From: a virus
Virus record (IMG/VR): IMGVR_UViG_3300035703_000076
Span: 4,947-68,946 of that record
Direction: 5' to 3' (one strand)
Length of the DNA stretch: 64,000 nt
The notes beneath the pieces are model-generated. The model was given only the letters and a program-made list of their open reading frames with translations. It was not told the DNA's origin and searched no databases. Positions 1 to 14,490 of the stretch are shown one piece after another (position 1 is the first letter of the stretch; every line of letters begins with the position of its first letter). A program made the position numbers and the translations under genes.

Positions 1-35
1 GTCGGGGCAGATGGCGGCGTGGTTTTTCATTGGTT

Positions 36-452
36 TTATTTAAAGGCAAGGTTTATTTTTTCTGAAAGAAGTTTCTCTGCGTCAAGGGTATAAGATAATT
101 CTTGCCAAAGCGGGACTTTGTGATTACTCCATTCTAAAAACTTGTATTCCATATATCTTTTTTTTGCTAATTCCAATCTTTCTTTTTGTTTTTTTGGCAA
201 TTTTGATTTACAGAAAAAAACTAATCTTAAATCAATTTTACGAATGCGTAAATCATCCTCAAAAACATTAAAATCAGCCCTTACTCCAATAAGTTCAAAT
301 TCTATGCCGTTTTCAAAAAAAGTTTTATTTTGGTATCTGTCAAAAGTTTCCCTTTCTACTTTTTCTTTTATTTTCTCAACAATAGCGTTTACTGCCGAGG
401 CTGCTTTAAATCTTTCTTGTTGAGCTTCAATTAAAAATTTCACTAATTCCAT
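36..452 (-). CDS. hypothetical phage protein (138 aa)
   Basis: ATG-started ORF co-oriented with the early region; no motif recognised. Confidence 0.75.
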   Translation of the reverse strand: MELVKFLIEAQQERFKAASAVNAIVEKIKEKVERETFDRYQNKTFFENGIEFELIGVRADFNVFEDDLRIRKIDLRLVFFCKSKLPKKQKERLELAKKRYMEYKFLEWSNHKVPLWQELSYTLDAEKLLSEKINLAFK

Positions 453-483
453 TGGTTTAAAGTTTTTGGTTATTAATAATCGG

Positions 484-570
484 TCATTGGTTCAATCCTT
501 CAAAAATTAATTCTTCGCCGGTCAAGGCGTGGTAAAGATTTCCAATCCTGAGTTCGTGTGCTTTTATCAT
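484..570 (-). pseudogene. internally collapsed remnant of an 'ELRIGN...NLYxALTGEEL' phage protein (28 aa)
   Basis: Hand translation MIKAHELRIGNLYHALTGEELIFEGLNQ*; N- and C-terminal motifs of a family recalled from Bacteroidota phages are joined directly. Confidence 0.55.
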
Positions 571-575
571 TGGTT

Positions 576-614
576 ATGTGGATAGTTAATGTGGATAGTT
601 AATGTGGATAGTTA
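576..614. repeat. 3 x 13-bp perfect tandem repeat ATGTGGATAGTTA
   Basis: Copies start at 576, 589 and 602. Confidence 0.95.
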
Positions 615-624
615 TGTTTGCTTA

Positions 625-674
625 ATTTTGTTGGATATGTGCAAGTTTATGGCACATGTCTGGTAGTTATAGGA
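625..674 (+). other. attI-like leader/recombination site of cassette array A
   Basis: 34/44 nt identical to 61424-61467, ending ATGTCTGGTAGTT; directly precedes the first cassette (GTT at 666). Confidence 0.7.
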
Positions 675-676
675 AA

Positions 677-850
677 TTAAAAAATTGAAGTGAGCCTTTT
701 CCAAAATGACTTCCATCTAAATTTAATTATCCTGTCACAAATCATACACCTATCAGTTGTGTAGTGTTCGGTATTTGTGTAAATAATGTTTCTAAAATCA
801 CCACAATCGTGTTTAGCGTGGGTGTATGCTTTGTCTTGTTCTTTATTCAT
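677..850 (-). CDS. cassette A1 gene, 57 aa, possible Zn-binding (HxC...CxxC)
   Basis: Hand translation MNKEQDKAYTHAKHDCGDF...DRCMICDR...KRLTSIF*; below the ORF-track size cut-off; fills cassette 1. Confidence 0.7.
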   Translation of the reverse strand: MNKEQDKAYTHAKHDCGDFRNIIYTNTEHYTTDRCMICDRIIKFRWKSFWKRLTSIF

Positions 851-869
851 CGTATCAATTTTTTAACTA

Positions 870-970
870 TCCTATAACAGCACCTAACAAAAATGGCTGC
901 ATAAGCATTGGTTTTCAATTCAGAAGTTCTTACAAGCAGCCACTTCTGTTAGCCGCAAAACGTTATGTGC
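870..970 (+). repeat. attC-like hairpin A1
   Basis: TCCTATAAC...TAACAAAAATGGCTGC / GCAGCCACTTCTGTTA...AAAAC-GTT. Confidence 0.85.
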
Positions 971-974
971 CATT

Positions 975-1256
975 TTAAGGCGACACGTAATAAGGGTTTG
1001 AAGCAATCTTTATGTAGCTTTTAGCATACAAATTGAATCTACTTCCATCAACCCAATAAACAGCATGTTGCGTGCTTAACATATTTACAGAATCGCATTC
1101 TATTTGTGCAGACGTAGTCCAGTTATCATCATCTGTTTTTGCTATTATGTAAGCACGTTTTGGTTTTGGTTCTAACTCACACGAAGAAAAAACGGCACAT
1201 AACAACAAACTTGCAAAAGCAAGGGTTAATCGGTTAATTGAAAATTTGTAATTCAT
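975..1256 (-). CDS. cassette A2 gene, predicted lipoprotein (93 aa)
   Basis: Hydrophobic N-terminus ending FSSC (lipobox-like); start codon lies inside hairpin A2. Confidence 0.75.
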   Translation of the reverse strand: MNYKFSINRLTLAFASLLLCAVFSSCELEPKPKRAYIIAKTDDDNWTTSAQIECDSVNMLSTQHAVYWVDGSRFNLYAKSYIKIASNPYYVSP

Positions 1257-1329
1257 ATTACATTTGTTTTAAGTTGAAATTTTGTGCTTCTAAATACTTG
1301 CCTTCGCAAGTTTGCAAAACGTTAGTGGC
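1194..1329 (+). repeat. attC-like hairpin A2
   Basis: GGCACATAAC-A-ACAAACTTGCAAAAGCAAG / CTTGCCTTCGCAAGTTTGC-AAAAC-GTT. Confidence 0.85.
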
Positions 1330-1333
1330 AAGT

Positions 1334-1549
1334 TTAAAAACCGCACTTGACACATTTTATATCCTTTTTATCCATTGAAGTGAATCCAATTGGTAATTCT
1401 GGAACATCGCATATACATTTAGATTCTTCGTTGAATATTTTATAATCATTACAAATTTTCTGCAATTCGTCTTTCTCTATAAGAAAATCACCTGTAAATT
1501 GGTCAATTCTTAGTTCATATTTTTGGATTAATTTATCTATTAGTTTCAT
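1334..1549 (-). CDS. cassette A3 gene, 71 aa, C-terminal CxC...CxxC
   Basis: ORF fills cassette 3; Cys motifs. Confidence 0.7.
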   Translation of the reverse strand: MKLIDKLIQKYELRIDQFTGDFLIEKDELQKICNDYKIFNEESKCICDVPELPIGFTSMDKKDIKCVKCGF

Positions 1550-1579
1550 ATTTTAATTTATAAATGTTAATAAAAACCA

Positions 1580-1712
1580 GCCACTAACACTCGCTATAAG
1601 TAATGGCGGGTTCAGTGGTAATTGTTGTGTTGTGCTTTCTATTGTCATTTGTTGTATTTTGATAGTGAGTAGTTCCAATACCGCCACTACTCATAGCGGA
1701 AACGTTATAGGG
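1580..1712 (+). repeat. attC-like hairpin A3
   Basis: GCCACTAAC-ACT-CGCTATAAGTAATGGCGG / CCGCCACTACTCATAGCG-GAAAC-GTT. Confidence 0.85.
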
Positions 1713-1742
1713 CATTTAAACTGTTTGGCACATAATCTTAAA

Positions 1743-1952
1743 TTACTCAATCAATAAATTATATTCGGATAGGTACTCTCGTATCTTCTCCCTGCTATCT
1801 TGATAGGCAATATACATATCTTCTGGCAGAGTCTCATACTTGAGTTTGCCTCGTAAATACTGGTCATATTCAAATATAGCCGCAGCATACTTACTGCCAT
1901 TAATTGCTAATTGTGCTTCTTCAATCGTGTCAAATTCTATGACTATTTTCAT
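1743..1952 (-). CDS. hypothetical phage protein (69 aa)
   Basis: ORF in the tightly packed minus-strand run. Confidence 0.75.
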   Translation of the reverse strand: MKIVIEFDTIEEAQLAINGSKYAAAIFEYDQYLRGKLKYETLPEDMYIAYQDSREKIREYLSEYNLLIE

Positions 1953-1976
1953 TTTAAATAAATTTAAGATTTTCTT

Positions 1977-2330
1977 TTACACCCCATACACCCGAACATT
2001 CAACCTTACCTCACCATTTGGCCGCTTCCTTCCAAGGCCAGTTAACTCGTCAAAAACGGCGTAGATTAAAGCCTTGTCCAAATCGAAGCAATCGGCTGAA
2101 AATTGACTTACCTCCATTTTGACAAACCGAAGATTCTTTTCAGGCATGGATGGAACGGAATGAAGTTTACCAGGAATCAATCCCTTTTCCTTCATTGTTC
2201 TATTCGCCTTGTTCATTGCAAGTTTGAGAAATGCTTTTCTAGCTTCGGCAGAATGGATTTCAATTTGTTTGCGGTGCTGCTCGATTTGGTCTAATCGGTA
2301 GTTAAGGATGGTTTCGTAGTTTTGGAGCAT
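1977..2330 (-). CDS. hypothetical protein
   Basis: ORF, operon packing. Confidence 0.7.
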   Translation of the reverse strand: MLQNYETILNYRLDQIEQHRKQIEIHSAEARKAFLKLAMNKANRTMKEKGLIPGKLHSVPSMPEKNLRFVKMEVSQFSADCFDLDKALIYAVFDELTGLGRKRPNGEVRLNVRVYGV

Positions 2331-2332
2331 GG

Positions 2333-2665
2333 TTAAAGATTTATTATTTCTCCTGATTCTGTTTTGTAATTAAACTTAAATCCATCGTTTACGAAGTTTC
2401 GCACAAGCGATGGGCTTGAAAAAACCTTGCCATTTTTTATGCAATTTGAAATATCTTCAATGGTTGCTCGCCCAAACTCGTAACTGTTTCCATGTAAGGT
2501 GAAAGTATCGCTTTCTCGGTCAAGCGACCACCAACCGCCACCTTTTACGTTATTTTTGTTCGTAACAAGTTGTTTGTGATAGGTGCATTTCGCCAATATC
2601 AAACAATCCCCATGTTCTTCGTCAGTTTCGATAATAAATTTTGTAAAAACGTCCATTTTCTTCAA
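2333..2665 (-). CDS. hypothetical protein (start probably MDVFTK at 2656)
   Basis: ORF, operon packing. Confidence 0.7.
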   Translation of the reverse strand: MKKMDVFTKFIIETDEEHGDCLILAKCTYHKQLVTNKNNVKGGGWWSLDRESDTFTLHGNSYEFGRATIEDISNCIKNGKVFSSPSLVRNFVNDGFKFNYKTESGEIINL

Positions 2666-2668
2666 TTT

Positions 2669-2917
2669 TTATTTGTGGTTATTTTTTGCAATTTGATTCA
2701 ATACTTCAACGTGTTCGGCTGTCAATTCAAACTCATCCCAAGCCCCGTACCTGCATTTGTAGCCGAAAAGGTACTTTAGGGCGTACTTTAATCGGTGAAA
2801 AAACGGCCTCGGTGCTAAGTGGATTTGAAGGTAAGTTGTGTTGTCGTCCTCGTCATGGTTGACAATGATTTGATGCTCGGTTGAGTAACAATTGCAGATT
2901 AAGATTTGTGGGTGCAT
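2669..2917 (-). CDS. hypothetical protein (CxC..H, YLFGY..YG.W motifs)
   Basis: ORF, operon packing. Confidence 0.7.
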   Translation of the reverse strand: MHPQILICNCYSTEHQIIVNHDEDDNTTYLQIHLAPRPFFHRLKYALKYLFGYKCRYGAWDEFELTAEHVEVLNQIAKNNHK

Positions 2918-2920
2918 GGT

Positions 2921-3838
2921 TTACTTCTCCTTCAATGGTTTAAACAAAAACTTCCTTGGTGTGGTCGAAGGAACTGAACATTCCTCAACGATTTCGGGGT
3001 AGGTTTCCTTCAATTTCTTGCTGTCTAATTTCGTTGTTTCTTCCCCTCCCTTCCAAGTGAACAATGGCTTTCCTTCTTTGCTTAAAATAACCTCATTTTC
3101 AAGCATCTTCATCTTGATAGTTTCCTCAATCGTTTCCTTCTCGCTTTCAAGCCTTGTCAATTCTTTTCGTACATTCCCAAGGGCTTTGTGTAGTTCAACG
3201 ATTCCATCATCCGCAACAATTGACTTGGCGTTGCTTTTCGGAAACATTTCAAGCACGTCCTCTGCGTTTTTCGGTTCGGGTGCAACATCAGTCAAAACGT
3301 GGTTGTGCCAAAAGTTCCTTGCCGATTCAAGTTGTTCCTCAAACAAATCTTCTTGGAACGTCCATTGCATACTTCCGATTGAACTACCACTTTTAAGGTA
3401 GAAAATGATTCCTGTTTTTAGGCCGCAAATGCCCAACTCCCAATTGATTTGCTCAATCCAATAAACGGGAATGTCATCAACCGATTCAATTCTTTGCTGG
3501 GTGTTTTTGAGGGAAATAATTACTTCCTCGTAATCCAATCGGGCAAAGGCATCAGGAACGGCAACAATACCGATTTCCTTGGTGAACATTTCCTTGTTAA
3601 GCCTTTCATGGGTTAATCGAACAACCCCGCCTTCTTGGTTGATTTTTTCAACCCCCATTTGAAGGATAAATGGTTCAATTTTGATTCCAATAAGTTGCTT
3701 TTCGGAAAGTTCACCTTTTGTGGCTTTGCCCGTTTTTTGTTGCCAGATTTGGAAGGGGGTAACGTAATCGTTAAACCCCCTGATTGCGGCAATGTCGGAA
3801 CCTCCAATGCCGTGTGCTTTGATGTTTGATTTTTCCAT
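2921..3838 (-). CDS. YqaJ-family (lambda exonuclease-like) recombination nuclease
   Basis: GIGGSDIAAI.G...Y.TP..IW..KTG N-terminal motif; PD..(S)LK core; YWIEQ. Confidence 0.85.
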   Translation of the reverse strand: MEKSNIKAHGIGGSDIAAIRGFNDYVTPFQIWQQKTGKATKGELSEKQLIGIKIEPFILQMGVEKINQEGGVVRLTHERLNKEMFTKEIGIVAVPDAFARLDYEEVIISLKNTQQRIESVDDIPVYWIEQINWELGICGLKTGIIFYLKSGSSIGSMQWTFQEDLFEEQLESARNFWHNHVLTDVAPEPKNAEDVLEMFPKSNAKSIVADDGIVELHKALGNVRKELTRLESEKETIEETIKMKMLENEVILSKEGKPLFTWKGGEETTKLDSKKLKETYPEIVEECSVPSTTPRKFLFKPLKEK

Positions 3839-3840
3839 GA

Positions 3841-4479
3841 TTAGAAAGGTAAAGAAGTGTCTTCGTCCTCAGCCGCTGGATATTGGTTGTTTGAAATGTG
3901 AGTTTCGGCAGGGCTTGTTAGTTTTGCGTACTGCTCCGAAGATTTGATTTTGTCCTTGATAAAGTCTGGCAAAGATTCAAATTTGGCTTTGTCAAAGTTG
4001 TCAAGTTCAAAAACAAAGGTTGGATTAACTTGTGGTGGACACTCCATACCTTTAATCATTGGTGAAACAGAAGCGATTTCGTTGTAAACAACAGAAGGGT
4101 CTTTTGCTCCTGGTTTCTCAATGATGTTAAGCATACAAGCAACTCCAAGAAGCTTTGTGATGTCGAACGATTTTGCTTCCGCCTCGGTGAAATCTTTGCC
4201 CCTCCAAGAAGCAAGCATCTTGCGAAGTGTTGCTTTCTCATTCATTGACAAAGTGTATTCCTTGGAAATCACACAAGGCTGTTCACCTTTGTCCTCGTTA
4301 AACACTTTCTTTTCGGTTGGAAGTTCCCATCCGATTCTCACTTTGTGAAGAAGTTTTTCTTCGCCTTGGAAGCTTTCTTTGATTGTTCCAAGTTCAATCA
4401 TTTGGTAACACCTTGCAAGGTAGTTGCCTGATGGGATTAATTCTCTTTTAACCCCTTTGTTGGTTGCGTTGATAGCCAT
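3841..4479 (-). CDS. putative ssDNA-binding/annealing protein
   Basis: Adjacent to YqaJ; G.Y.ARCY..I.LGT motif; acidic C-tail ending DTSLPF typical of SSBs. Confidence 0.65.
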   Translation of the reverse strand: MAINATNKGVKRELIPSGNYLARCYQMIELGTIKESFQGEEKLLHKVRIGWELPTEKKVFNEDKGEQPCVISKEYTLSMNEKATLRKMLASWRGKDFTEAEAKSFDITKLLGVACMLNIIEKPGAKDPSVVYNEIASVSPMIKGMECPPQVNPTFVFELDNFDKAKFESLPDFIKDKIKSSEQYAKLTSPAETHISNNQYPAAEDEDTSLPF

Positions 4480-4491
4480 TGTTTATTTGAT

Positions 4492-4920
4492 TTAAAAATT
4501 AAAGTTTACTTGTTCGTTTGGGTCGGGAATATACACGTTCAATTCCTCCGCCGCAAATTGTTTGATGTCTGCAAGATACTCCATAAACTGCGAAGTTGTT
4601 AGGTTTGAGGTGTGTCCTGTAATAGTTTTCACCTCCCCTGTTGTTTCATTTATCAAATCTTCTTTGACAAAGGTTTGCTTCATTAGTTCGTGTACTTGCC
4701 CGGTTGTTAATTTGTACCCAATTTGATAAAAACCATCTTTGAGGATTGGGTAAACTACTCCCCACAGATAGGCGTTTTGTTCGTTGCTTCGTTTTTTACG
4801 TTTTCTTTCGATTGTAAGAACTATTTCCTTCCCTTCAAAGGATTTTATCGCTTCGGTAATTGGCTGTCTATTAGACGAAATTAGGCCGTTAATTACTTTG
4901 GTCGGGAAGGATAGTTTCAT
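4492..4920 (-). CDS. NinB/YbcN-like recombination protein
   Basis: RS.EQNAYLWG, H..MK, TS.L...F..YL..I motifs. Confidence 0.75.
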   Translation of the reverse strand: MKLSFPTKVINGLISSNRQPITEAIKSFEGKEIVLTIERKRKKRSNEQNAYLWGVVYPILKDGFYQIGYKLTTGQVHELMKQTFVKEDLINETTGEVKTITGHTSNLTTSQFMEYLADIKQFAAEELNVYIPDPNEQVNFNF

Positions 4921-5132
4921 TACGCAATTACGTTTTGATTGAAAACAACATGACTCCTGTCAAGTTCTGGATTGCCTCGCTCGTTTACTAAACAGGCTTC
5001 AAGTTCAAGTTTAATATCTTCAAGGTTTACAGGTTCAACTTTTCGGATATAAAATGTTTCTTTGTCGCCTTGGTTCGCAAGGTCGTAAAATATCTCTACT
5101 TGAAATGTTGCTAATGTTTTTAGGCTTTCCAT
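4920..5132 (-). CDS. hypothetical protein
   Basis: Stop overlaps the next gene's start. Confidence 0.65.
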   Translation of the reverse strand: MESLKTLATFQVEIFYDLANQGDKETFYIRKVEPVNLEDIKLELEACLVNERGNPELDRSHVVFNQNVIA

Positions 5133-5137
5133 ATTAT

Positions 5138-5530
5138 TTAGTTCTCGTCAAAGAAATCTGATAATGATGGTTTCGAGTACCAATTTGAAATAAATCCATT
5201 TTCTCCAATATGCAAATCGATATAATCGCCATATTTTCCTGGAATTAATTCATTTGGAACATAGTCATTTTCAATAGAAGATATGGTATTTCCTTCTGAA
5301 TCTAAAAGGAAATATGAACCTTCGTCACAAACCTTCATGCTTAAATGACCTTTTTGACCTTTTGGCCAATCCAAAACTCGCCCTTCGTCAATATTAATAA
5401 TAGCAGACCACGTATTTCCACTTCTTAATGGGAAATCATTTGGTATATCCTCTTCTCCATATCTTACAGCTACGTCAACTTTGACCATTACAATTTCAAC
5501 CTCTTTTTCCGCTTTAATTATTGCTTTCAT
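5138..5530 (-). CDS. conserved hypothetical phage protein (KVCDEG.Y, YVP, YGDYI motifs)
   Basis: ORF, operon packing. Confidence 0.75.
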   Translation of the reverse strand: MKAIIKAEKEVEIVMVKVDVAVRYGEEDIPNDFPLRSGNTWSAIINIDEGRVLDWPKGQKGHLSMKVCDEGSYFLLDSEGNTISSIENDYVPNELIPGKYGDYIDLHIGENGFISNWYSKPSLSDFFDEN

Positions 5531-5553
5531 TTTATTATTGATTTTTAATTGAT

Positions 5554-5865
5554 TTACTTTTCCCTGTTGTCGTATCTTACAACTGCTGCGCTTTCCCTTT
5601 CACCATCCCCTAATTCAGCATCAACGGCATTTTGCAATTCTTTGATAAACTCGTTCGGCTTGGCTAATTCAAAGCCTGTTATCTCGTGGCTTGCTGCGTA
5701 CCTTGCCCCTGTAATATCATCGACGTAGCCTTCATTGGTTGAAACTGATACTTCAAGGTCAACCACTACCGAAATGGTTATGGTGTCATCTTTTCTTTGC
5801 GGGGTTCGGCCAAATGTGGCCTGACTTGCTGCGGCAATTGCAGCCTTGATTTGTTCTGATTTCAT
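5554..5865 (-). CDS. hypothetical protein, first gene after an early promoter
   Basis: ORF about 21 nt downstream of the predicted +1. Confidence 0.7.
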   Translation of the reverse strand: MKSEQIKAAIAAASQATFGRTPQRKDDTITISVVVDLEVSVSTNEGYVDDITGARYAASHEITGFELAKPNEFIKELQNAVDAELGDGERESAAVVRYDNREK

Positions 5866-5874
5866 CGCTTAAAT

Positions 5875-5898
5875 GTTGTTATTGACTCTGCGAAAATA
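5875..5898 (-). promoter_or_regulatory. early promoter: TATTTTCG-N4-GTCAATAACAAC
   Basis: Variant Bacteroidota -7 box plus a motif shared at identical spacing with 8218-8241 and 13465-13487. Confidence 0.7.
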
Positions 5899-5956
5899 GT
5901 AAATATTTTGATTGGAGTACAGAAATTGTTTAATTATTTTTCATGGCGCAAATAAG

Positions 5957-6226
5957 TTAGGCGCAACTAATAAGAACCGCAGATTTGAGATTGCTTGCAC
6001 CATCTGACGGGTCGATAAACATTCCATAATTAAAATACAGGTTGTTCTTAGTTTGCAAAATAATTTCCTTCGTCCTTGTTTTTACTTCGACAATTTCAAA
6101 TACTTTAAACCTGAATGACCTCCTTGGGTGGTCGTGCATATCTCTATGAAATTCACAAGCCAATAAATCGCCCTTTTCCAAGCCTTCAAAGTCTGCTATT
6201 GTTTTTAACTCTTTTGTCGTTATCAT
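5957..6226 (-). CDS. hypothetical protein (possible ex-cassette gene)
   Basis: ORF; its stop lies in GTTAGGCGCA, like the cassette gene ends. Confidence 0.7.
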   Translation of the reverse strand: MITTKELKTIADFEGLEKGDLLACEFHRDMHDHPRRSFRFKVFEIVEVKTRTKEIILQTKNNLYFNYGMFIDPSDGASNLKSAVLISCA

Positions 6227-6286
6227 TTCTTTTTCAAATTATTCCCCTGCCGAAAAGCCGCCCAGCAGGATAGCGGTTAGTTGGTT

Positions 6287-6326
6287 TCATTCAAAATTAG
6301 CCTTCCATCGAGGGTAAACATTGGGG
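6287..6326. repeat. 40-bp direct repeat, copy 1 (copy 2 at 7478-7517)
   Basis: 38/40 identical: TCATTCAAAATTAGCCTTCCATCRAGGGTRAACATTGGGG. Confidence 0.9.
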
Positions 6327-6506
6327 TTAATCTGAAACCAACAACTCAATAGAAATGTTTGATAAATCTACCCCACACCTTTCATAAATTGCCATTTTCA
6401 TATCCCATTCAAGGTCTTTTAACTCTTTTGCCTTTTCGTTTTCGTTTTTCCAATCTGTGTTCCATTTTTCAACTTCTGATAATTCAATTTTTGCTACAAT
6501 TTTCAT
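6327..6506 (-). CDS. hypothetical protein (59 aa)
   Basis: Hand translation MKIVAKIELSEVEKWN...ELLVSD*; A-rich upstream. Confidence 0.6.
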   Translation of the reverse strand: MKIVAKIELSEVEKWNTDWKNENEKAKELKDLEWDMKMAIYERCGVDLSNISIELLVSD

Positions 6507-6533
6507 TTTTTTTTGTATGTTTTTAAAATATTA

Positions 6534-7001
6534 CTATCTGCTTTCCATATCGAAAATCAACTTTGCCTCTATTGACTTCATCAGTTCTTTTATCGCCCCT
6601 TCTTTTGTTCCAGATTCGGCAACCATACCTTCTACTCCAACAAGTTCTGCCGTCCAAGAATGAAATTTACCATACGCCGTATCGGTTTTAATTTCTTGAA
6701 ATTTAATATCTAATTTTGGGAGTGCTTTGTTTGTTTTTGGCACGTGCTGACTTAATTTTTCCACTACCAATGCAAGGGTAGTAGACGGCAACCTTAACGC
6801 ATTAACGATGCACCAATTAGCAATTTCTGAATTTTGGTTAGGCAGTAAAATAGTTCTGCAAATTGCCACTATTTCGGAAAGTTGCGTTTCGGTCAAATTA
6901 AGGCCGTACTCAAATTCCATGTGTTTAAAAAGTGTTTGATTTTCTGATGCCATTGGGTTTATTTTTTGCTTGTTAAATGATAGCTTCCGCAATACGGACA
7001 T
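6534..7001 (-). CDS. hypothetical protein; C-terminus HicB-like (AEL.G..G...E..TKE.AI)
   Basis: ORF; weak motif resemblance; true start may be MASENQ at 6953. Confidence 0.55.
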   Translation of the reverse strand: MSVLRKLSFNKQKINPMASENQTLFKHMEFEYGLNLTETQLSEIVAICRTILLPNQNSEIANWCIVNALRLPSTTLALVVEKLSQHVPKTNKALPKLDIKFQEIKTDTAYGKFHSWTAELVGVEGMVAESGTKEGAIKELMKSIEAKLIFDMESR

Positions 7002-7130
7002 TTGTAAACTCGTTTAGGCTTTTTCGTTGCCAACCTTCGCTGACTTTTTCCGTAAGCCCTTCCTTGCTTGGAAAAGCTATTAACTACCTTTTGCGCTTGT
7101 TCAAATGTATCAAATGAAGTTTTTCCGCAA

Positions 7131-7481
7131 TTAGACATTATCTACCTCCTTTGCCTGGGTTCGTATTTCATCAAGGCTTCTCAATATAGAATCTACTCTA
7201 TCATTTGGGAACTCCTCTCTAATTACCGAAAGCAGTAATTTTACTTCTTCGCATTTCACATAAAAATCAAATGCCAATCTTTGGTTTTCCGTAGGGTTTT
7301 GAATTTCCTTGAATCGTCGAATATTTAGGTCGATTTCGTGGATTCGAATAAGGGCTGCAACCTTTGGAATAAGTTTCGATTTGTCAAAGTATGGTTCGTT
7401 TTCAATTGCTTCAATTATCTTGGTCGCAATGAAAATAGGCGATTGGGTTTTTATATCTCGTTTAGCCATTGTTATTATCAT
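7131..7481 (-). CDS. hypothetical protein
   Basis: ORF, operon packing. Confidence 0.65.
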   Translation of the reverse strand: MIITMAKRDIKTQSPIFIATKIIEAIENEPYFDKSKLIPKVAALIRIHEIDLNIRRFKEIQNPTENQRLAFDFYVKCEEVKLLLSVIREEFPNDRVDSILRSLDEIRTQAKEVDNV

Positions 7482-7953
7482 TCAAAATTAGCCTTCCATC
7501 AAGGGTGAACATTGGGGCGGCCTCGTCGTGGATTAGACACCTGTTCCATTTAGCGGATTTAACGATTACAGGGATAGGGCTGTGCATTTTTGCAACTTTT
7601 TCCAAGTCCTTAATCGCTTGCTTGCAGTCCTTTTCGAAATATGGCCGAACTGCTAAGCCTCGGTCTTTCATTGTGGATTGGTTTTCCTCGGTTCCGTTCC
7701 AAAGTTGCTCAAGCTGTCTAATGCGTTCTAATCGCTCGGAAACGATGAAGGTGTGGAAATGGTCAATGAAGATGTACTCGAAGCCTATATCTAAGGCAAT
7801 GCATAGATTAATGAACTTAAAGCCAAGGGTTCGGTTTGCCAAATTGAAAACTCGTTCAACTCGTTTTGGCGTGGTCGGTTTCTTGTTTAAAAGCCTGTTT
7901 GCTTCTTCGGGTTTGTAAAGGAACAGGCGGTCGGGGTAGGTGTCGGATAGCAT
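7462..7953 (-). CDS. hypothetical protein (163 aa)
   Basis: ORF; its 3' end is duplicated at 6287-6326. Confidence 0.7.
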   Translation of the reverse strand: MLSDTYPDRLFLYKPEEANRLLNKKPTTPKRVERVFNLANRTLGFKFINLCIALDIGFEYIFIDHFHTFIVSERLERIRQLEQLWNGTEENQSTMKDRGLAVRPYFEKDCKQAIKDLEKVAKMHSPIPVIVKSAKWNRCLIHDEAAPMFTLDGRLILNDNNNG

Positions 7954-8217
7954 AGTTTCTCTTGATTTTAGTGGTTATTTCCCAAATATTCCCAAACCTT
8001 AACTAAGGATGGCCAGGCTACGTTGACAATCAAACCTGCAACGTAAACAATTGCCATCCAAGATACGGCAAGTAATAGGAATCGGCAAATGCCGTGGGTT
8101 CGGGCTTTCATGCGAAGCAAAAATTAATGGTTGATATAATGACTAATAAGCCAATAGAAAAGATAATTGCGGCAGCAAGTAGCAGCCTTTTAAGGAGGTT
8201 AGGTTTCATTGTTTTAA

Positions 8218-8241
8218 GTTGTTATTGACATTGCAAATGTA
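8218..8241 (-). promoter_or_regulatory. early promoter: TACATTTG-N4-GTCAATAACAAC
   Basis: Consensus TAnnTTTG box plus the shared leader motif. Confidence 0.75.
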
Positions 8242-8248
8242 GTAATTT

Positions 8249-8473
8249 CTAAATATCATCAATATCTTTTCGGATAAAACTTTCGGGGTTTCGGTAAAAA
8301 TACCCAGCCCTAACCACCACCTCTCTCATTTTGGTTTCGGATAAGATTCCTAAAGCATAACGGTTTCGGATGTTGTTTCCCCATTGGCTGCTCATCCCGC
8401 ATCTGCGGTAAAAGTATTTAAAGTTTAAGGTGTAGCAGAAAGCCTGCTCTAAACTCATTGTTTCTGTTCTCAT
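8249..8473 (-). CDS. hypothetical protein
   Basis: ORF. Confidence 0.6.
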   Translation of the reverse strand: MRTETMSLEQAFCYTLNFKYFYRRCGMSSQWGNNIRNRYALGILSETKMREVVVRAGYFYRNPESFIRKDIDDI

Positions 8474-8492
8474 TGTTGTTACATTGATTTGA

Positions 8493-9185
8493 TTAAAGTA
8501 AATTTTCTTGTTTGTAATAGTTTATTAGATACCACACATTTTGAGGTGTAAACTCCTTCCCATCGGTTGTTATGTAGCCGCTTCGTTTGTAGCCTAAGCG
8601 ATTAAGGTTGTAGCTAATTTCCTTTAGAAGATAGTCGGGGTTGGCGGCAATATACATTTTGATGTACTCGTATATCTGAACTTTGTTGTTATCCTCCCAT
8701 ACGGCTCTTTTCCTTGCTATTCCTCCATTAACTGCGGCTTCATAGCTTAGGTTTTCAGGTTTTCCAAGTTTCACTCCATTGGATTTCTTTACTTGCAATG
8801 CAGCCTTTGTTCGTTTGCTTATCAGTTCCCTTTCGTGCTGTGCCATCGTTGCGAAGATGCCAAGGGTTAGGGTGTTGAGGTCGGGCAAATCTAAACAAAC
8901 AAAGTTAACTGATTCCTTCAAAGTAAACAAAAAAGATACATTTCTACTTAGTCTGTCTAACTTAGCTATGAGCAAAGTTGCTTCTTTTTGTTTACATTCC
9001 TTTATAGCTTGTTCAAGTTGAGGTCGCTTGTCCTTCTTACCCGATTCAACTTCTGTAAACTCCTGCAATATACGGCCATTATTTTTGGCGTATAAGTTAA
9101 CAGCTTGCTTTTGTGCTTCCAAACCTAAGCCTGATTCGCCTTGTCGCTTTGTTGATACTCGGTAGTATGCAATGTAGGTTTTCAT
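8493..9185 (-). CDS. serine recombinase (resolvase/invertase family)
   Basis: YYRVST..Q, G.K..RP.L and KLDRLSRN catalytic motifs; ERELIS.RTK helix E. Confidence 0.92.
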   Translation of the reverse strand: MKTYIAYYRVSTKRQGESGLGLEAQKQAVNLYAKNNGRILQEFTEVESGKKDKRPQLEQAIKECKQKEATLLIAKLDRLSRNVSFLFTLKESVNFVCLDLPDLNTLTLGIFATMAQHERELISKRTKAALQVKKSNGVKLGKPENLSYEAAVNGGIARKRAVWEDNNKVQIYEYIKMYIAANPDYLLKEISYNLNRLGYKRSGYITTDGKEFTPQNVWYLINYYKQENLL

Positions 9186-9187
9186 AT

Positions 9188-9424
9188 TTAATTTAGCGTA
9201 AAGGATTCCAAGGTTAAGATTTCAAGTTTGGCGAATTGTAGCTGCCAATACATTCTTCTGACGGCTTTATAATATTCCCAAAATTGTTCCTGTTCCCTTT
9301 TCGGCAACTTGAATAATTCGCCCGAATTTATGAAGTTTCTACATTCCGCTTTTTGGGCGGAAAGTTCGGCAATGGCTTCATCGTTTGAAGTCAAACGACT
9401 GATGGTGTCGGTGTGGTAGTACAT
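9188..9424 (-). CDS. hypothetical protein (start MYYHTD)
   Basis: ORF; internal ATG with A-rich upstream. Confidence 0.6.
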   Translation of the reverse strand: MYYHTDTISRLTSNDEAIAELSAQKAECRNFINSGELFKLPKREQEQFWEYYKAVRRMYWQLQFAKLEILTLESFTLN

Positions 9425-9455
9425 TGTTTGTTGGTTGGTTTTAAAGATTAATGTT

Positions 9456-9688
9456 TTAGGGCAATTCAAAGAATGGATAGTCATTATCATCAAAGTCATT
9501 CTCAAAAGCAATCAATCCCTTTTTGCTAAGGTATTTCCTTTCGCCTCCGCTATGCCGAAAGTACATTGTATTTTCTTCGTCCAATTTCTCGAACTTCAAT
9601 AGGGTTGCAAAAGGTAGTGTTGGGTTTGTGTCGCTGTATATTTTACCAGCAACAAGTTCTTTTGGGTGGTTGATTTTTTGTAGGTCAT
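9456..9688 (-). pseudogene. frameshifted hypothetical gene
   Basis: ATG ACC TAC + A6 is out of frame with a downstream open frame of about 75 codons (INHPKELVAG...PFFELP*); one extra A restores it. Confidence 0.45.
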
Positions 9689-9738
9689 TTGATTATTTTT
9701 TTTGATTGGTTTAACATTAAGTTTTTTTCGGGTTTGGG

Positions 9739-9963
9739 TTAAGCGCACCACCGAGGAAAGTCAATTTCTCCCGTTTTTATAATAATTTGGGCTACTTCTT
9801 GGGCTTCGTTCCCTTGGTACAAACCATCGGCAATGCAAGCTATAAACCATGAATGTAAATTATCCTCCTCGCTGTGCGCTGCTTCGGGGTCTGCCGCTAA
9901 ACTGGAAATTCTTAAAAGTTCATTTGTGGCAAGTTCTTTTGTTAATTTTTCACGTTCGTTCAT
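9739..9963 (-). CDS. hypothetical phage protein (DPE.AH..ED...RWCA)
   Basis: ORF with a recurrent small-phage-protein motif. Confidence 0.75.
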   Translation of the reverse strand: MNEREKLTKELATNELLRISSLAADPEAAHSEEDNLHSWFIACIADGLYQGNEAQEVAQIIIKTGEIDFPRWCA

Positions 9964-9996
9964 TTTGATTAATTTTTACTCGGTTAATACATTTCC

Positions 9997-10194
9997 CTAT
10001 TTCGGGTTTGTTGTTACATTATTTACATTGTTATTGCCCCATTCAACGATTTCTTGCAATGGTGTGGACTGCGAAAAGTTTTCCTCTTTAAAAGGAAACT
10101 TAAAGCCCTCCTTCCAAAGTTCGGCAGTTCGGTTGTACGCTGTACCATTTTGGACGATTAAATAATGGTTGTTTTTTAGCTTGATTTTTAACAT
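9997..10194 (-). CDS. hypothetical protein
   Basis: ORF. Confidence 0.6.
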   Translation of the reverse strand: MLKIKLKNNHYLIVQNGTAYNRTAELWKEGFKFPFKEENFSQSTPLQEIVEWGNNNVNNVTTNPK

Positions 10195-10202
10195 TGTGTT
10201 TT

Positions 10203-10424
10203 TTATTGGTTGGTTAATAGTTCTTTTGCTCTTATCATTCCCAAAAGGAAATAATTTAATTCATTGTAGGGCAATGTAGGGCTAATTGTACTTTGTCCTA
10301 ATTGGGCGAAAAAGTGAGGGGTTGTTTTTCGTTTATCATTAAAGATATATTGACGAATGGTTATGCCCAATTTTAAACAATTGGCTGCATTTTGCAGGGC
10401 TTCAAGTTCGGTTATGTTTGACAT
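10203..10424 (-). CDS. hypothetical protein
   Basis: ORF. Confidence 0.65.
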   Translation of the reverse strand: MSNITELEALQNAANCLKLGITIRQYIFNDKRKTTPHFFAQLGQSTISPTLPYNELNYFLLGMIRAKELLTNQ

Positions 10425-10449
10425 TGCTTTTTTTTGGTTGGTTAATTAA

Positions 10450-10698
10450 TTAAAACTCTTTGTTGTCCTTTATGATTTCATTGCATAGGGCTAAATATCC
10501 TTGATGTACCCTATTTTTCCCATTGTGGTCGGTTTCGTCGGGTAAGCTATGCCAATTGTCAACTGCCTTGCTGTTGGTTGTTACGGTGTGAATTTCTTTG
10601 CCATAGTGGACACATGAGATATACCAATGTCCGTAAGTTGAGGGTTCGACATTCAGTTTTTTAACGTTGTGAAATGCTTGGGCTTTTGTGGCGTTCAT
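10450..10698 (-). CDS. hypothetical protein
   Basis: ORF. Confidence 0.65.
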   Translation of the reverse strand: MNATKAQAFHNVKKLNVEPSTYGHWYISCVHYGKEIHTVTTNSKAVDNWHSLPDETDHNGKNRVHQGYLALCNEIIKDNKEF

Positions 10699-10724
10699 TT
10701 GATTGGGGGGTTAGTTTATTAAAG

Positions 10725-12197
10725 TTAAAATTCCATTTCAAAAATTACTGATTGGGCTTGTTGACTGGTTGTTTCTTTTGCTCTGCCCGTTTGTCTTTTT
10801 TGGTAGGCTGTTTGCGGTTTAGCTTCAAAAAGTGGAAAGCCTTTTAGTTGAGCAACTTTAGCGTTGAAAGTTTCCCATACTTTTTCACTTTTAAATTCAA
10901 AGTGCATGTTTCCATTTTTGAAAGCTTTGTATTTAAAAAACTCGCACCCATCAAAATATTCACCGTAAGCATTGCGGTTTATGGATTGGTATAATGTTCT
11001 TATTTTGTCGTAATCAATACCACAGGCAAAACAAAGGGCTTTTTCAAGGTCTTCAACTTTGGTACTATTGTATGAACTAAGGTAGTTGTAAGTTGTGCTT
11101 GTAACGCCGTATTCTTTTGCAGGGTTTACAATGTTAGGAAGAATAAACTTTTTACCTACTAAAAAATGGCCGTTTGTTTTCCATCCTTGGACATTGTACC
11201 TGTTGTCGTGGTGATGCTTGGTAATTGTGTCGAAAGCTTCTAAAATCGCTTTATCCATACGATTTCCAGCAGTTCCAATAATCATTTCCACCATTTTGTA
11301 AATGTTTCGCATGGTAAAGGGAACATTTTGCTGCGTTTCAGTAAATTTATTAATATCCTCCCTTAATGACTTGGTTGAATATTTGTCTAATTCAAATTTT
11401 TTGATGATAAAAAGCCAAGCGGATTTTTGAAGATTAATTTTAAATTCATTTCTTAGAACTGTCGCACCCTTCTCTGTGCAACTAAAGCTTAAACTTTCAC
11501 CATAAAATCCGCTTAGTAAAGCATTCATTTTTTTGGCCGTGTTTAATTGTTCGTCATAAATTTTAATTGCAGCCACATACCTATTAACCAAGTCCCTTAC
11601 AAAGTTGTAAGTAATTAGTCCGTTTCCCTGCGCTTCGATTGGGTCTTCCTCCATAAAAAAACCTTCAAATTCTTGGCTGTATTCGCTTGATGGCTTTTGA
11701 ATGGATACCAAAGCTATGTTAACATCTGTTTGCCTTTCAGAAGTAGAAAAACAATTGCCTAAATTTACATAGTTTCCATTCTGTTTAACAACTTCATAAA
11801 GTTCTTTTCTTTGCTGCGAATATGTGTTTTTTAATGTTTCCAAATTCAGTAGGCTAATAATCCTGCATCCTGATGGGGCAATGTTGAAAGCATGAAGCAA
11901 ATGTTCAGCACCTCGGCTAAAAGGAGGATTCATTACGATAAAATCAATATGACTAACATCTTCGCTTTTCAGTTCTAAAAAGTTTTCAGCAATTAACTTG
12001 CATTTGCTTTTAATGATTTCTTTTAGCCTTGAGTCGTTTTCACATGCAATAACATTACCTCCTTTATTTTTTAGGAAGTCAACTATGTTACCACTCCCTG
12101 CGCTTGGTTCTAAAATGGTCTTGCCTTGGAAATCTATTCCAAAAGTCATTTGTTCAATTACGTCCGTAGGGGTTGGGTAAAAATCTTGATTAAACAT
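10725..12197 (-). CDS. N6-adenine-type DNA methyltransferase with DUF4942-like C-terminal domain
   Basis: DFYPTP, LEPSAGSG (motif I), VMNPPF (motif IV); C-terminal GWKTN and FKNGNMH.F. Confidence 0.88.
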   Translation of the reverse strand: MFNQDFYPTPTDVIEQMTFGIDFQGKTILEPSAGSGNIVDFLKNKGGNVIACENDSRLKEIIKSKCKLIAENFLELKSEDVSHIDFIVMNPPFSRGAEHLLHAFNIAPSGCRIISLLNLETLKNTYSQQRKELYEVVKQNGNYVNLGNCFSTSERQTDVNIALVSIQKPSSEYSQEFEGFFMEEDPIEAQGNGLITYNFVRDLVNRYVAAIKIYDEQLNTAKKMNALLSGFYGESLSFSCTEKGATVLRNEFKINLQKSAWLFIIKKFELDKYSTKSLREDINKFTETQQNVPFTMRNIYKMVEMIIGTAGNRMDKAILEAFDTITKHHHDNRYNVQGWKTNGHFLVGKKFILPNIVNPAKEYGVTSTTYNYLSSYNSTKVEDLEKALCFACGIDYDKIRTLYQSINRNAYGEYFDGCEFFKYKAFKNGNMHFEFKSEKVWETFNAKVAQLKGFPLFEAKPQTAYQKRQTGRAKETTSQQAQSVIFEMEF

Positions 12198-12232
12198 TTT
12201 TTAAAGTATTTATTGATTAATAAAATTGAACA

Positions 12233-13240
12233 TTAGTTTTTTGAACTGATTAAAAAACTTTTTACGTCTTCTAATTTGCGCTTGCTGAAAATAATACCTT
12301 TTCCACATTTTAAACGTGGGTTGTAACTTCCTCCGATTTTTATTAAACCTTCGTAGTGTTTGGTTAAATCCCCAACAACGGCGAAAGCTTTTTCGGAATA
12401 GTCAACTATTTTGATTTTACCTTTTACCTCTACTTCTGTTTCAACGGTTTCGGGTTTAACATTGGCTGCTTCATCAGTTACAAATTGAATGTAGAAAAAG
12501 TTTTCAATCCCACTTGTGGCTGTTTTGTCGTTCCTTTTTACCTCAAAACTTTTGAAACCGTCGGGAATAGAGGTATGATATAAAAGCCTGTGCGCTATCC
12601 TGTTCGGTTGGTCATTATAGTCTAGGTTTGAAAAATCAAAAAGTAACTCTAATTGCTTTTCAACTTCTTGGGAAATCTCATTAGAAATATCCCTGTGTGA
12701 ACTTACATACTTTGCTTGGGGAATGTCGGTTCTTTGGTTGCTGTATTCATAAATATCCTCCATGCCGTTGAAATGGCCGTATTGATATTTATCAATAATA
12801 TTATCAACTTCGCCAGTCGTTGGGCCGTTTGACCAATTAACATGAACGCTGTTTCCTCCTGAAAAAGAATCGGACTTTACAGAGAATTTAACAGAAGGGA
12901 AAACCTTTTTCAATTCTTGCTTAATCGCTGCGCTCGCTGCTGCGTGGCTGCTTGACTTTCCTTTGTTGGCTTCTTTTTGTTTTGCCTTCCATTCTTCTCG
13001 GCTGTCTGCTGCTGCTTTTAAGCTATTAACCTTGGCTGTTAATAGCTCAATTGTTCTATACCTGAAAAAGTCAGTATGATTGGCCGCAGTACCCCAAAAG
13101 GATTTTAAATAAAAATCGGTTTCGTGTATAAAAATAAATAGATTTTTATATTCAATTTTTTTGTATCCATTGCGTAATAGCCAATCAAATTGGGTTGCTC
13201 TGCTGTTGTCCCTGTCTGCTTTGGTTAATAGTCTGTTCAT
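12233..13240 (-). CDS. LPD29-domain polyvalent-type protein
   Basis: LKKVFP.VKFSV.S...SGG.SV.V.W..GPT...V......Y..G.FNGMED.Y motif; C-terminal DYSEKAFAV.G...GG.YN.RL domain. Confidence 0.75.
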   Translation of the reverse strand: MNRLLTKADRDNSRATQFDWLLRNGYKKIEYKNLFIFIHETDFYLKSFWGTAANHTDFFRYRTIELLTAKVNSLKAAADSREEWKAKQKEANKGKSSSHAAASAAIKQELKKVFPSVKFSVKSDSFSGGNSVHVNWSNGPTTGEVDNIIDKYQYGHFNGMEDIYEYSNQRTDIPQAKYVSSHRDISNEISQEVEKQLELLFDFSNLDYNDQPNRIAHRLLYHTSIPDGFKSFEVKRNDKTATSGIENFFYIQFVTDEAANVKPETVETEVEVKGKIKIVDYSEKAFAVVGDLTKHYEGLIKIGGSYNPRLKCGKGIIFSKRKLEDVKSFLISSKN

Positions 13241-13284
13241 TGCTTAAAAGTTTAAAAGTTTAAATATTTGGTTGGTTGGTTGGT

Positions 13285-13452
13285 TTAGTTTTTTGAAGTC
13301 AAATTTTCAAGGAAAAGAACGATGCTTAAAATGATGCTTAACAAGGTGAAAAAAGCGAAAAACTGATATTCCTTTGAAAAGGCTGAAAAACCGACAAGGA
13401 AAAGGCAAAGAAATAAGCTAATTAATAGGGGTTGGTTTGGTTGGTTGTTCAT
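13285..13452 (-). CDS. small two-TM membrane protein (about 55 aa)
   Basis: Hand translation MNNQPNQPLLISLFLCLFLVGF...; first gene after the promoter. Confidence 0.55.
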   Translation of the reverse strand: MNNQPNQPLLISLFLCLFLVGFSAFSKEYQFFAFFTLLSIILSIVLFLENLTSKN

Positions 13453-13464
13453 TGTTGTATTGTT

Positions 13465-13487
13465 TTGTTATTGACACGACAAACATA
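13465..13487 (-). promoter_or_regulatory. early promoter: TATGTTTG-N4-GTCAATAACAA
   Basis: Consensus TAnnTTTG box plus the shared leader motif. Confidence 0.75.
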
Positions 13488-13572
13488 CGGCAACAATTAA
13501 TACAAAAAACAACAGCAAATAAAAAAAGTTGTAACTGCTTGGAAATCAATGAAAAAGATTTACATAAAAGGT

Positions 13573-14061
13573 TTATTTCTTGGCCTTTTTTAGTGGTTTT
13601 TTACCCAATTTTCGGCGGTTTTCTTCCTGTTGTTCAACAAGGAACGGAAAGGTTGTACGAAAGTCCAGGGTGAACATATCGCAAAATTCGAGGGTTGGAA
13701 GGTAGATTAAACAGACTGAATAAGCTTTAAAAAAGGTGTGGATTGGTAGTCCTCTTAAATAGTCAGGTTTGCATCGGGAAAATAGTTGGTTGGATATTTT
13801 AGCGAGGGCTGAAAATTCAGGTTGACTTAGTCCGCTAATCTTTTGTATGTATATCAAATTAGCCCTAAATTTTGCGTAAAATTGCGTTAAGTGGTTTGAA
13901 AAGGCTAAACCATTATAATGAGTGTAAAGTATGTTTAAATGGTTAAAATGGGCTTTTCCTTCATCAGTCTTGAACTTGGAGAGAGCGTTATTAATCATTT
14001 TCTCCCTCTGCAATTTATAAGCTTCAAGGCTTTTATTTGCTTTCCATTTCACATTTTCCAC
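13573..14061 (-). CDS. XRE-like HTH protein (possible repressor)
   Basis: NL..I....GLSQ.EF...A.IS....SR pattern; sits at the divergence point. Confidence 0.55.
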   Translation of the reverse strand: MENVKWKANKSLEAYKLQREKMINNALSKFKTDEGKAHFNHLNILYTHYNGLAFSNHLTQFYAKFRANLIYIQKISGLSQPEFSALAKISNQLFSRCKPDYLRGLPIHTFFKAYSVCLIYLPTLEFCDMFTLDFRTTFPFLVEQQEENRRKLGKKPLKKAKK

Positions 14062-14378
14062 CCTTTTCCTCCTTTCAATTCAACCTTTCCTTCCTTTCCA
14101 CAACCTTGAACGTTGGTTTAAGGTTATGAAAATTGGTGGTTTTGGTAATTGATTGGAGCATTTTGTTAGTTAATAATTTATTTGAATTGCCGCAAAGATA
14201 AAGCAATTTTTTAAATATACAATAGCACCCTGGTCGTATATTGCCTATGCCTTGCTTCCCTTGCCTTGCCTTGCTTGGTTGTGGTTTGGGTTTGACCTTG
14301 AAAAAAAAAGTAAGGCAGGGGGGTTGATGGCAGGGGGGTGCTTTTTTTGTCTGCTTGGTTTGGCTGAACGTGGGGGTA

Positions 14379-14490
14379 AACCCCTCTTTCATTGAGGGAC
14401 AACCCCTCTTTCAATCAGGGATGCTTTCTTCAACCCCTCTTTCTTTGCGCTAAACCAATTTTCCTTCAACCCTCTTTCATTGAGGGATGC
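14379..14490. repeat. four copies of AACCC(C)TCTTTC, three followed by A(T/A)T(G/C)AGGGA
   Basis: Copies at about 14379, 14401, 14432 and 14468 in a pyrimidine-skewed intergenic region. Confidence 0.85.

Follow-up and report, generated by a model that had tools for sequence, protein, structure and literature searches.

The 64,000-nucleotide (nt) stretch analysed here, referred to as the window, covers positions 4,947 to 68,946 of IMG/VR record IMGVR_UViG_3300035703_000076 and makes up most of a phage genome that is 68,946 bp long and complete, with direct terminal repeats. Small minus-strand genes lie at positions 1-14,900 and 61,100-64,000 of the window, and the rest is occupied by large plus-strand structural genes. 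Five hairpins, designated A1, A2, A3, B1 and B2, are situated among the small genes on the minus strand. They resemble attC sites, the recombination sites of integron gene cassettes, and we analysed both their relationship to such sites and the ATG codons in their loops as possible starts of the genes that follow. The five hairpins are listed below (limits are exact and include the five outer bases on each side).

870-970, minus strand: hairpin A1, with a short 36-nt loop; detected by stem scan and covariance model (67 bits)
1195-1329, minus strand: hairpin A2; detected by stem scan and covariance model (102 bits)
1580-1712, minus strand: hairpin A3, in the order GCCCTATAAC, gtttc, stem, 72-nt loop, stem, GTTAGTGGCT; detected by stem scan, fold and covariance model (73 bits)
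61689-61818, minus strand: hairpin B1, with a 67-nt loop; detected by stem scan and covariance model (96 bits)
62046-62145, minus strand: hairpin B2, with a 38-nt loop; detected by stem scan and covariance model (50 bits)

A scan of the whole 68,946-bp genome for TAAC...GTTA enclosing a stem returned these five hairpins and one weak site, compared with zero to two weak matches per strand in 10 shuffled genomes. The covariance model, which was trained on 57 copies that all come from other genomes, returned exactly the five hairpins, all on the minus strand with scores of 50-102 bits, and without any motif filter. All five hairpins fold better on the minus strand than on the plus strand. Every one of them is bounded by TAAC and GTTA, the core of the inverted RYYYAAC/GTTRRRY ends of attC sites.

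The hairpins belong to two arrays of single-gene cassettes, A and B, whose features are as follows.

1704-1741, minus strand: leader of array A, ending in CCTATAAC, within a block of about 1.13 kb (about 614-1741) that is missing from relatives
1321-1703, minus strand: cassette 3 of array A, with hairpin A3, open reading frame (ORF) 1334-1549 (71 amino acids), then GCCACTAAC
962-1320, minus strand: cassette 2 of array A, with hairpin A2, ORF 975-1256, then GGCACATAAC
666-961, minus strand: cassette 1 of array A, with hairpin A1, ORF 677-850 (57 amino acids), then TCCTATAAC
616-665, minus strand: trailer A, TACCAGACATGTGCCA...GCACATATCCAACAAAAT, immediately following the final TAAC of array A
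61810-62136, minus strand: cassette B2, with hairpin B2, ORF 61811-62083 or 61811-62035, then GTGCCTAAC
61465-61809, minus strand: cassette B1, with hairpin B1, ORF 61466-61738, then GGCAGGTAAC
61417-61464, minus strand: trailer B, TACCAGACATAAGCCA...GCACATACCTAACAAAAT, followed by the backbone gene 61123-61413

The stop codon of the B1 gene is the TAA of TAAC. The trailer sequence has only two copies in the genome, each of which closes an array. The trailer (TAAC followed directly by TACCAGACAT), with two copies here and one in the relative L285, is a candidate for an attI-like insertion point. Matches to the 14-mer TAACTACCAGACAT in viral contigs were considered as further trailer copies and rejected: none of the 116 matches is trailer-like beyond the seed, so we regard all of them as chance matches.

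The TAAC/GTTA hairpin was found in 210 copies, 63 of them in phage loci and 147 in bacterial contigs. The spacer after TAAC is 5 nt long in 146/210 copies (mostly GTTTT or GGTTT), the stem is about 20 bp, and the spacer between the return arm and GTTA is 1 nt long in 145/210 copies. Loops measure 60-75 nt in 171 of the 205 non-redundant copies and 10-38 nt in a minority. We aligned 57 diverse copies, in which the invariance of TAAC and GTTA is partly by construction as the scan required both. In this alignment 97.1% of cells pair, a percentage that is inflated because the scan required a stem, and compensatory changes, which are not inflated in this way, are present in 18 of the 19 long-helix pairs. 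One G·T wobble is invariant (57/57 copies), a pair between the G that follows TAAC and the T that precedes GTTA is present in 54/57 copies, and the sense strand outscores the antisense strand in 56 of 62 copies. From their sequences, the strands of these sites seem to be marked by G·T wobbles rather than by bulges. The bases beyond TAAC and GTTA are variable and in some cases depart from the R/Y rule. A loop motif, CACAAATG(T), is present in 58/108 bacterial loops and 23/45 phage loops. In the window loops, (C)ACAAATG(T) occurs at 1655-1661, 1261-1267, 61759-61765 and 62081-62087, and in bacterial copies it is found at two preferred distances from the 3' arm, about 15-24 nt and about 55-64 nt ahead of it. 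This motif may be a protein-binding element of the site.

Consecutive sites are related to each other through their outer bases. The outer 5 nt on the 3' side of one site and on the 5' side of the next are complementary at all five positions in 51/76 pairs, compared with 2.1% of random pairs and 12/195 comparisons between the two sides of one site. Within the window, GTTAGTGGC of A3 is complementary to GCCACTAAC of A2, GTTATGTGCC of A2 to GGCACATAAC of A1, GTTATAGGAT of A1 to ATCCTATAAC at 675-666, GTTAGGCAC of B2 to GTGCCTAAC of B1, and GTTACCTGCC of B1 to GGCAGGTAAC at 61474-61465. In integrons, such complementarity is the footprint of a circular cassette recombining at one fixed point.

The boundaries of homology between loci fall at TAAC. 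The five cassette proteins were compared with all collected loci using tblastn, which identified relatives for the B1 gene only, and none of the five has relatives in the bacterial loci. The B1 gene has homologues in eight other phage contigs, in which the shared sequence extends from GTTACCTGCC to GGCAGGTAAC and the similarity stops immediately past TAAC. Four of these eight contigs also share the upstream hairpin, and in them the homology starts right after AAC, at the G. Across all loci, TAAC lies within 8 nt of the end of the homology block in 42/65 cases (background 6.8%), and 25 of 68 homology-block starts are at the 5' TAAC compared with four at the 3' site. Breakpoints lie exactly after TAAC also where no hairpin comes next. 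With TAAC followed by G as the left bound and TAAC as the right bound, the mobile unit as read from these alignments is G-spacer-hairpin-GTTAxxxxx-gene-xxxxxTAAC, i.e., a hairpin and its downstream gene, and a cassette thus brings along a loop ATG of its own.

At these sites, whole cassettes come and go or are replaced by others. The phage has a YqaJ-like exonuclease gene (identified in a Pfam scan of ten large early ORFs), and two relatives with 96% and 92% YqaJ identity (L002 and L004, respectively) lack window positions ~614-1741, which hold array A and trailer A. A contig from an unrelated freshwater metagenome (X2) likewise joins position 613 directly to position 1742. L285, whose flanks are 97% identical, has kept the backbone gene and the trailer and has different cassettes between them. 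A 599-nt contig (X12) contains positions 961-1325, i.e., hairpin A2 and its gene from TAAC to TAAC, amid sequence that is unlike the window on both sides, and another contig (X4) covers 1326-1590. In X4 and X12, the A1 region at 873-965 is covered several times more deeply than the sequence on either side of it, which indicates that it is a repeat there. Metagenome runs with a small share carry no habitat information. The first array cassette of L285 (9330-9395) is a half hairpin consisting of the loop and 3' arm only, fused to the stop of the backbone gene (AAGTAA joined to AAATTG, where the window equivalent is AGGTAAC followed by G). This shows that array ends can form at TAA-like secondary sites.

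The original prediction stated that every attC-like loop in the window contains a start codon that reads through the arm, and listed five minus-strand peptides. All five peptides are present as written, and each of the five loops has such an ATG. When the loops were shuffled, 18-38% of trials per hairpin contained an ATG whose frame stayed open across the arm and GTTA, so a single ATG is unremarkable and five of five is remarkable (joint probability ~0.0015). The A2 loop ATG (1256) is the first codon of a 93-amino-acid ORF (975-1256, MNYKFSINRLTLAFASLLLCAVFSSC...), and the B1 loop ATG (61738) opens a 90-amino-acid ORF (61466-61738) of which it is the sole Met; these two are clear predicted gene starts. 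The A1 loop ATG (908) gives a 13-codon ORF, MLMQPFLLGAVIG, with its stop at 869-867, 16 nt before the gene ATG at 850. The A3 loop ATG (1648) gives a 31-codon ORF (1553-1648, minus strand) that passes through the 3' arm and GTTA and stops 3 nt before the gene ATG at 1549. The A1 and A3 loop ATGs are thus those of short upstream ORFs, and the 16-nt and 3-nt distances from stop to gene ATG would allow coupled re-initiation. The B2 loop ATG (62083, MLKAYCTYTLLGTVKIMK...) is in frame with ORF 61811-62083 and is a doubtful gene start, as an alternative ATG at 62035 has an equally A-rich context and is equally good.

Some further details of these reading frames were observed. A mini-ORF in hairpin B1, MFKIKN, overlaps the start ATG at 61738 via TGATG. 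An A3-type hairpin in another locus (L122) opens a long ORF in another frame, which in the window is closed by the TAG within GTTAG. By eye, the N-terminus of the A2 protein is similar to a lipoprotein signal peptide, with a K/R-rich start, a hydrophobic run encoded in the T/G-rich 3' arm of hairpin A2, and ..FSSC.

Across the larger set of long-loop phage hairpins, the frame between loop and gene is conserved. An open frame of at least 150 nt directly follows 39 of the 45 hairpins, all 39 frames are open back into the loop, and 37/45 hairpins have an in-frame loop ATG. Counted by frame relative to the downstream ORF, phage loop ATGs are distributed 42:12:2. As many as 21 of the 45 hairpins were collected via the B1 tag (the N-terminal peptide encoded by B1-type hairpins), and the other 24 form a tag-independent subset, in which an open frame follows 18/24 hairpins and an in-frame loop ATG is present in 16/24. 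A read-through ATG is present in 22/24 of this subset compared with 7.8 expected from loop shuffles. The corresponding figures for bacterial loops are 65/108 and 40.8. From the phage loops 34 distinct ORFs are opened, four of which have no other in-frame ATG, and in 21 more the next ATG is over 10 codons past the hairpin-encoded part (25/34 in total). In the GenBank annotation of phage mumin6-1, coding sequences start inside five of the six model-detected hairpins. A downstream ORF is opened from the loop by only 1/12 short-loop phage hairpins (B2 itself) and by 6/108 bacterial long-loop hairpins. The proposal that each hairpin is a portable start module is therefore partly supported: it holds for long-loop phage hairpins, whose loop ATG is mostly in frame with the ORF and predicted to be needed for it, but it does not extend to the short-loop hairpins or to A1 and A3, and it is doubtful for B2.

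The prediction had also linked the hairpins to recurrent N-terminal tags on unrelated phage proteins, and our comparison bears this out. The B1-type tag, MLIEEQNGNFAKPVL.A., heads at least 10 visibly different proteins (judged by eye) in 21 loci, several of these proteins carry methyltransferase motifs, and the B1-type hairpin is 90-100% conserved ahead of these different genes. The start ATG of this hairpin type is distinct from the CAAATG motif copy. A search of a set of 5.8 billion proteins for tag residues 1-40 among longer proteins gave one weak match, the 18-amino-acid tag being too short for that database.

In bacteria, the hairpin is abundant in assemblies of Bacteroidota. A pattern scan identified at least 120 contigs with it, and among the matches listed nearly all are assigned to Flavobacteriales, Chitinophagales, Cytophagales, Saprospiraceae and the like. 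Up to six sites are present in 8 kb, and five bacterial genomes have at least 16-49 covariance-model matches each (150 candidates scored per genome). The longest ORF lies opposite the folding strand in 33/41 bacterial cassettes, which is the classical layout, in which the top strand carries the gene and then attC and the bottom strand is the one that folds. Phage cassettes do not have this layout: the longest ORF is on the folding strand in 16/18 phage cassettes and the hairpin is upstream of the gene. The phage cassettes are thus inverted relative to the classical layout, so that the site precedes the gene.

Tyrosine recombinases are found close to the bacterial sites. The five bacterial genomes contain 23 full-length tyrosine-recombinase loci, 12 of which lie no more than 5 kb from a hairpin (tallied by hand), compared with about two at most predicted by site density. 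Four complete array-adjacent recombinases pass the NCBIfam model NF040815 ("tyrosine recombinase/integron integrase") or fall short of its cut-off by about 1 bit. One array-adjacent XerA-like recombinase is encoded by an ORF of 360 amino acids in L277. On one complete Bacteroidota chromosome (G005:C1), a hairpin is repeatedly located ~160 nt before a tyrosine-recombinase gene on the same strand (for example, 998695-999504, 2773603-2774409, 1445057-1445662 and 79723-80328, by hand from coordinates). These genes are either full-length (~300 amino acids) or remnants of ~150 amino acids. This suggests that the recombinase gene either travels as cassette cargo or belongs to a self-mobile unit.

The outer-base pairing, the boundaries at TAAC and the exchange of cassettes form a comparative signature of cassette recombination sites, in keeping with the attC-like nature that was originally proposed. 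We consider it likely that the hairpins are attC-type sites of an integron-like cassette system common in Bacteroidota and phages, and that in phages the loop ATG starts the cargo gene. The phage would hold two integrase-less arrays, similar to the integrase-less cassette clusters known as CALINs, with three and two single-gene cassettes and each ending at the shared trailer. The well-folding strand with its G·T wobbles would correspond to the recombinogenic bottom strand of a classical attC, folding as single-stranded DNA in vivo, and the crossover would adjoin the 5' TAAC. The recombinase is probably a host tyrosine recombinase. Genes would lie on the other strand in bacterial arrays (gene, then attC) and on the folding strand in phages, with the hairpin first. 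The A-rich loop of the phage hairpin would then offer an exposed ATG, and translation initiating there, as predicted from the reading frames, would continue across the 3' arm and GTTA and on into the cargo, so that the protein would carry a hairpin-encoded N-terminal tag of 15-21 amino acids. More tentatively, this may be a large, unrecognised integron-like system of Bacteroidota and their phages, having an attC of ~126 nt with an invariant G·T wobble, XerA-like recombinases without the IntI-specific domain, and inverted phage cassettes that act as a portable start and tag, with host and phage sharing one pool. In that case, any captured gene fragment could be expressed without initiation signals of its own.

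A number of observations weigh against this interpretation. No tyrosine recombinase (PF00589) was detected in the complete phage or in five other hairpin-bearing phage records, including the complete cultured Flavobacterium phage mumin6-1, which places the phage arrays among integrase-less, CALIN-like clusters. In the five bacterial genomes, no protein exceeded the cut-off of the integron-integrase model TIGR02249 (best listed match 212 bits, cut-off 265 bits). The array-adjacent bacterial recombinases have no match to TIGR02249 positions ~180-237, roughly the location of the IntI-specific domain. The stems of the 57 aligned copies lack the bulged extrahelical bases that characterise a classical attC. 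One gene body was found behind three different hairpin types, indicating that exchange also occurs at or near GTTA. Only two of the five loop ATGs in the window clearly open a gene. The CACAAATG motif is also present in bacterial loops, where it is not a start; as it is a family-wide loop motif, part of the phage ATG signal is inherited from the recombination site, and this inherited ATG was probably co-opted as a start. A single 151-nt RNA-library contig from one metatranscriptome (X19) covers 762-912, which is too little for a claim of transcription or translation. The hairpin sets themselves come from a scan that demanded TAAC, GTTA and a stem, and the phage loci were obtained partly via a tag search.

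We weighed these results against other explanations. The hairpins could act mainly at the RNA level or as regulatory elements (translation control, mRNA stability, or promoter/terminator stem-loops like PeSL), with genes shuffled by homologous recombination between repeated hairpins, perhaps through the phage YqaJ exonuclease and an annealing protein. The wobbles of the phage hairpins are G·U-compatible on the mRNA strand, their start codon lies within an unpaired A-rich loop, a YqaJ-like exonuclease is encoded by the phage, and many different genes are headed by one hairpin type, all of which would be in agreement with such a role. However, those 33/41 bacterial cassettes have a folding strand that is antisense to the gene, which makes the strand asymmetry a property of the DNA element and not of an mRNA. 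The breakpoints exactly at TAAC, even without a hairpin after them, also argue against it, as does the complementarity between the variable outer bases of one site and the next, which would not be expected from homologous exchange. Furthermore, no T-run follows the stems. For these reasons we consider a mainly RNA-level or regulatory role improbable.

To a similar degree, we think it unlikely that the loop ATGs merely reflect a conserved loop motif (CACAAATGT, to which a protein may bind at the recombination site), with incidental reading through the arm and the real starts further downstream. This would fit the presence of the motif in 58/108 bacterial loops at two preferred positions with genes on the other strand, the excess of read-through ATGs over shuffles in bacteria too, the short ORFs that are all A1 and A3 give, and the good downstream ATG of B2. 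It fits poorly with the 42:12:2 frame distribution of phage loop ATGs and with the 25/34 ORFs that have no alternative ATG near the start, four of them having none at all. The B1-type start ATG, moreover, is not a CAAATG copy, and a downstream ORF is opened by only 6/108 bacterial hairpins but by 37/45 phage hairpins. Hairpin-guided single-strand transposons or MITE-like units (IS200/IS605 or REP/RAYT style) inserting beside TAAC are a very improbable source of these structures. They would account for strand specificity and for a fixed tetranucleotide beside a subterminal hairpin, and IS608 with its TTAC target may be a comparable case. The moving unit here, however, is a gene with one hairpin and not a hairpin-bounded element, and the variable outer bases pair across the gene. 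No transposase family was found in the Pfam scans of the ten large early ORFs and of the cassette and flanking ORFs, although no search was aimed at HUH transposases.

As putative attC-type sites, the hairpins have similarities to and differences from several known systems. In the usual description of integrons, a cassette consists of a promoterless gene with its recombination site behind it. Here, a site of this kind is ahead of the gene and, judging from the open frames, would be translated. The likeness to integron attC sites and CALINs includes imperfect palindromes bounded by TAAC and GTTA, one strand that folds better, co-oriented arrays of single-gene units, outer bases that pair with the preceding site, and cassettes that vary between close relatives. 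Unlike in classical integrons, the phage ORF is on the folding strand and the site ahead of it holds the predicted start codon. Unlike classical attC sites, the hairpins have near-perfect stems with an invariant G·T wobble instead of bulged bases, and asymmetric spacers of 5 nt and 1 nt. In contrast to complete integrons there is no IntI, and the bacterial neighbours are XerA-like and below the IntI cut-off. Vibrio cholerae repeats (VCR) are highly similar attC copies of ~125 nt that are found on many unrelated genes within one lineage, which parallels the B1-type hairpin and its conservation ahead of different genes. However, VCRs belong to another phylum, have the canonical IntIA beside the cassettes, and their genes are mostly on the top strand.

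The PeSLs of T4-type phages act via homology and carry an early promoter. The hairpins described here differ in their site-specific breakpoints after TAAC, in outer bases that are complementary across the gene, and in that the element would supply coding sequence. The similarity is that PeSLs are reported to be a repeated stem-loop flanking small variable genes in plastic regions, linked to differences between close relatives in which genes have been gained, lost or replaced (PMC2839356, PMC4122927). CALINs have been reported in virulent phages by Qi et al. 2023, who describe an attC x attI conjugation assay and, as in our phage loci, DNA methyltransferases as frequent cargo (PMC9892861). Polaribacter phage P12002L, which is named in that paper, has one short-loop hairpin (38030-38095) and a weak 28-bit model match elsewhere. 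The published attC sites of P12002L were considered as family members and this link was not established. For classical integrons, effects of attC structure and of short ORFs near junctions on the translation of neighbouring cassettes have been reported, but there attC comes after the gene (PMC11511950, PMC4670013). In the open-access literature, we found no description of an inverted cassette whose attC loop contains a start codon. Bacteroidota are reported to have few integrons (PMC9024848).

Translation from within the site would explain the near-identical N-termini of unrelated small phage proteins and methyltransferases. For annotators, this means that such N-terminal "homology" would reflect a mobile DNA site and not common protein ancestry. 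The distribution of the hairpins points to a cassette pool common to Bacteroidota hosts and virulent phages, in which cassette movement seems to proceed in the absence of a canonical integron integrase. The covariance model provides a direct means to map this cassette pool.

The phage, which is without a tyrosine integrase, encodes a small serine recombinase of 230 amino acids at 8493-9185 (minus strand; Resolvase domain, E = 1.6e-29). This protein was rejected as the general catalyst, as a Resolvase domain was present in 0/5 of the other hairpin-bearing phage records. Other searches gave no annotation. Megablast of window positions 1-15000 against phage records returned no match, and neither Rfam families nor tRNAs (ARAGORN) were detected in the window. 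Neither PHROGs nor Pfam had a match to any of the five cassette proteins or to proteins encoded next to them, and the lipoprotein-like A2 gene had no relative when used as a query against viral contigs.

Two tandem repeats were also observed. At least five head-to-tail 60-nt repeats, encoding the peptide unit ..CTLPDNLVLPTTIGGYLYLRG.., are present at 63700-64000 together with positions 1-512 of L001. The ORF that contains them is on the minus strand and crosses the contig ends, and its non-repeat part had no match in Pfam. At 577-617, shortly after trailer A and in front of a small gene, a 13-nt unit (AACTATCCACATT) is repeated three times in tandem. These copies are kept in L002, which is without array A, indicating that they belong to the backbone and not to the array, and they may be an operator or promoter element.

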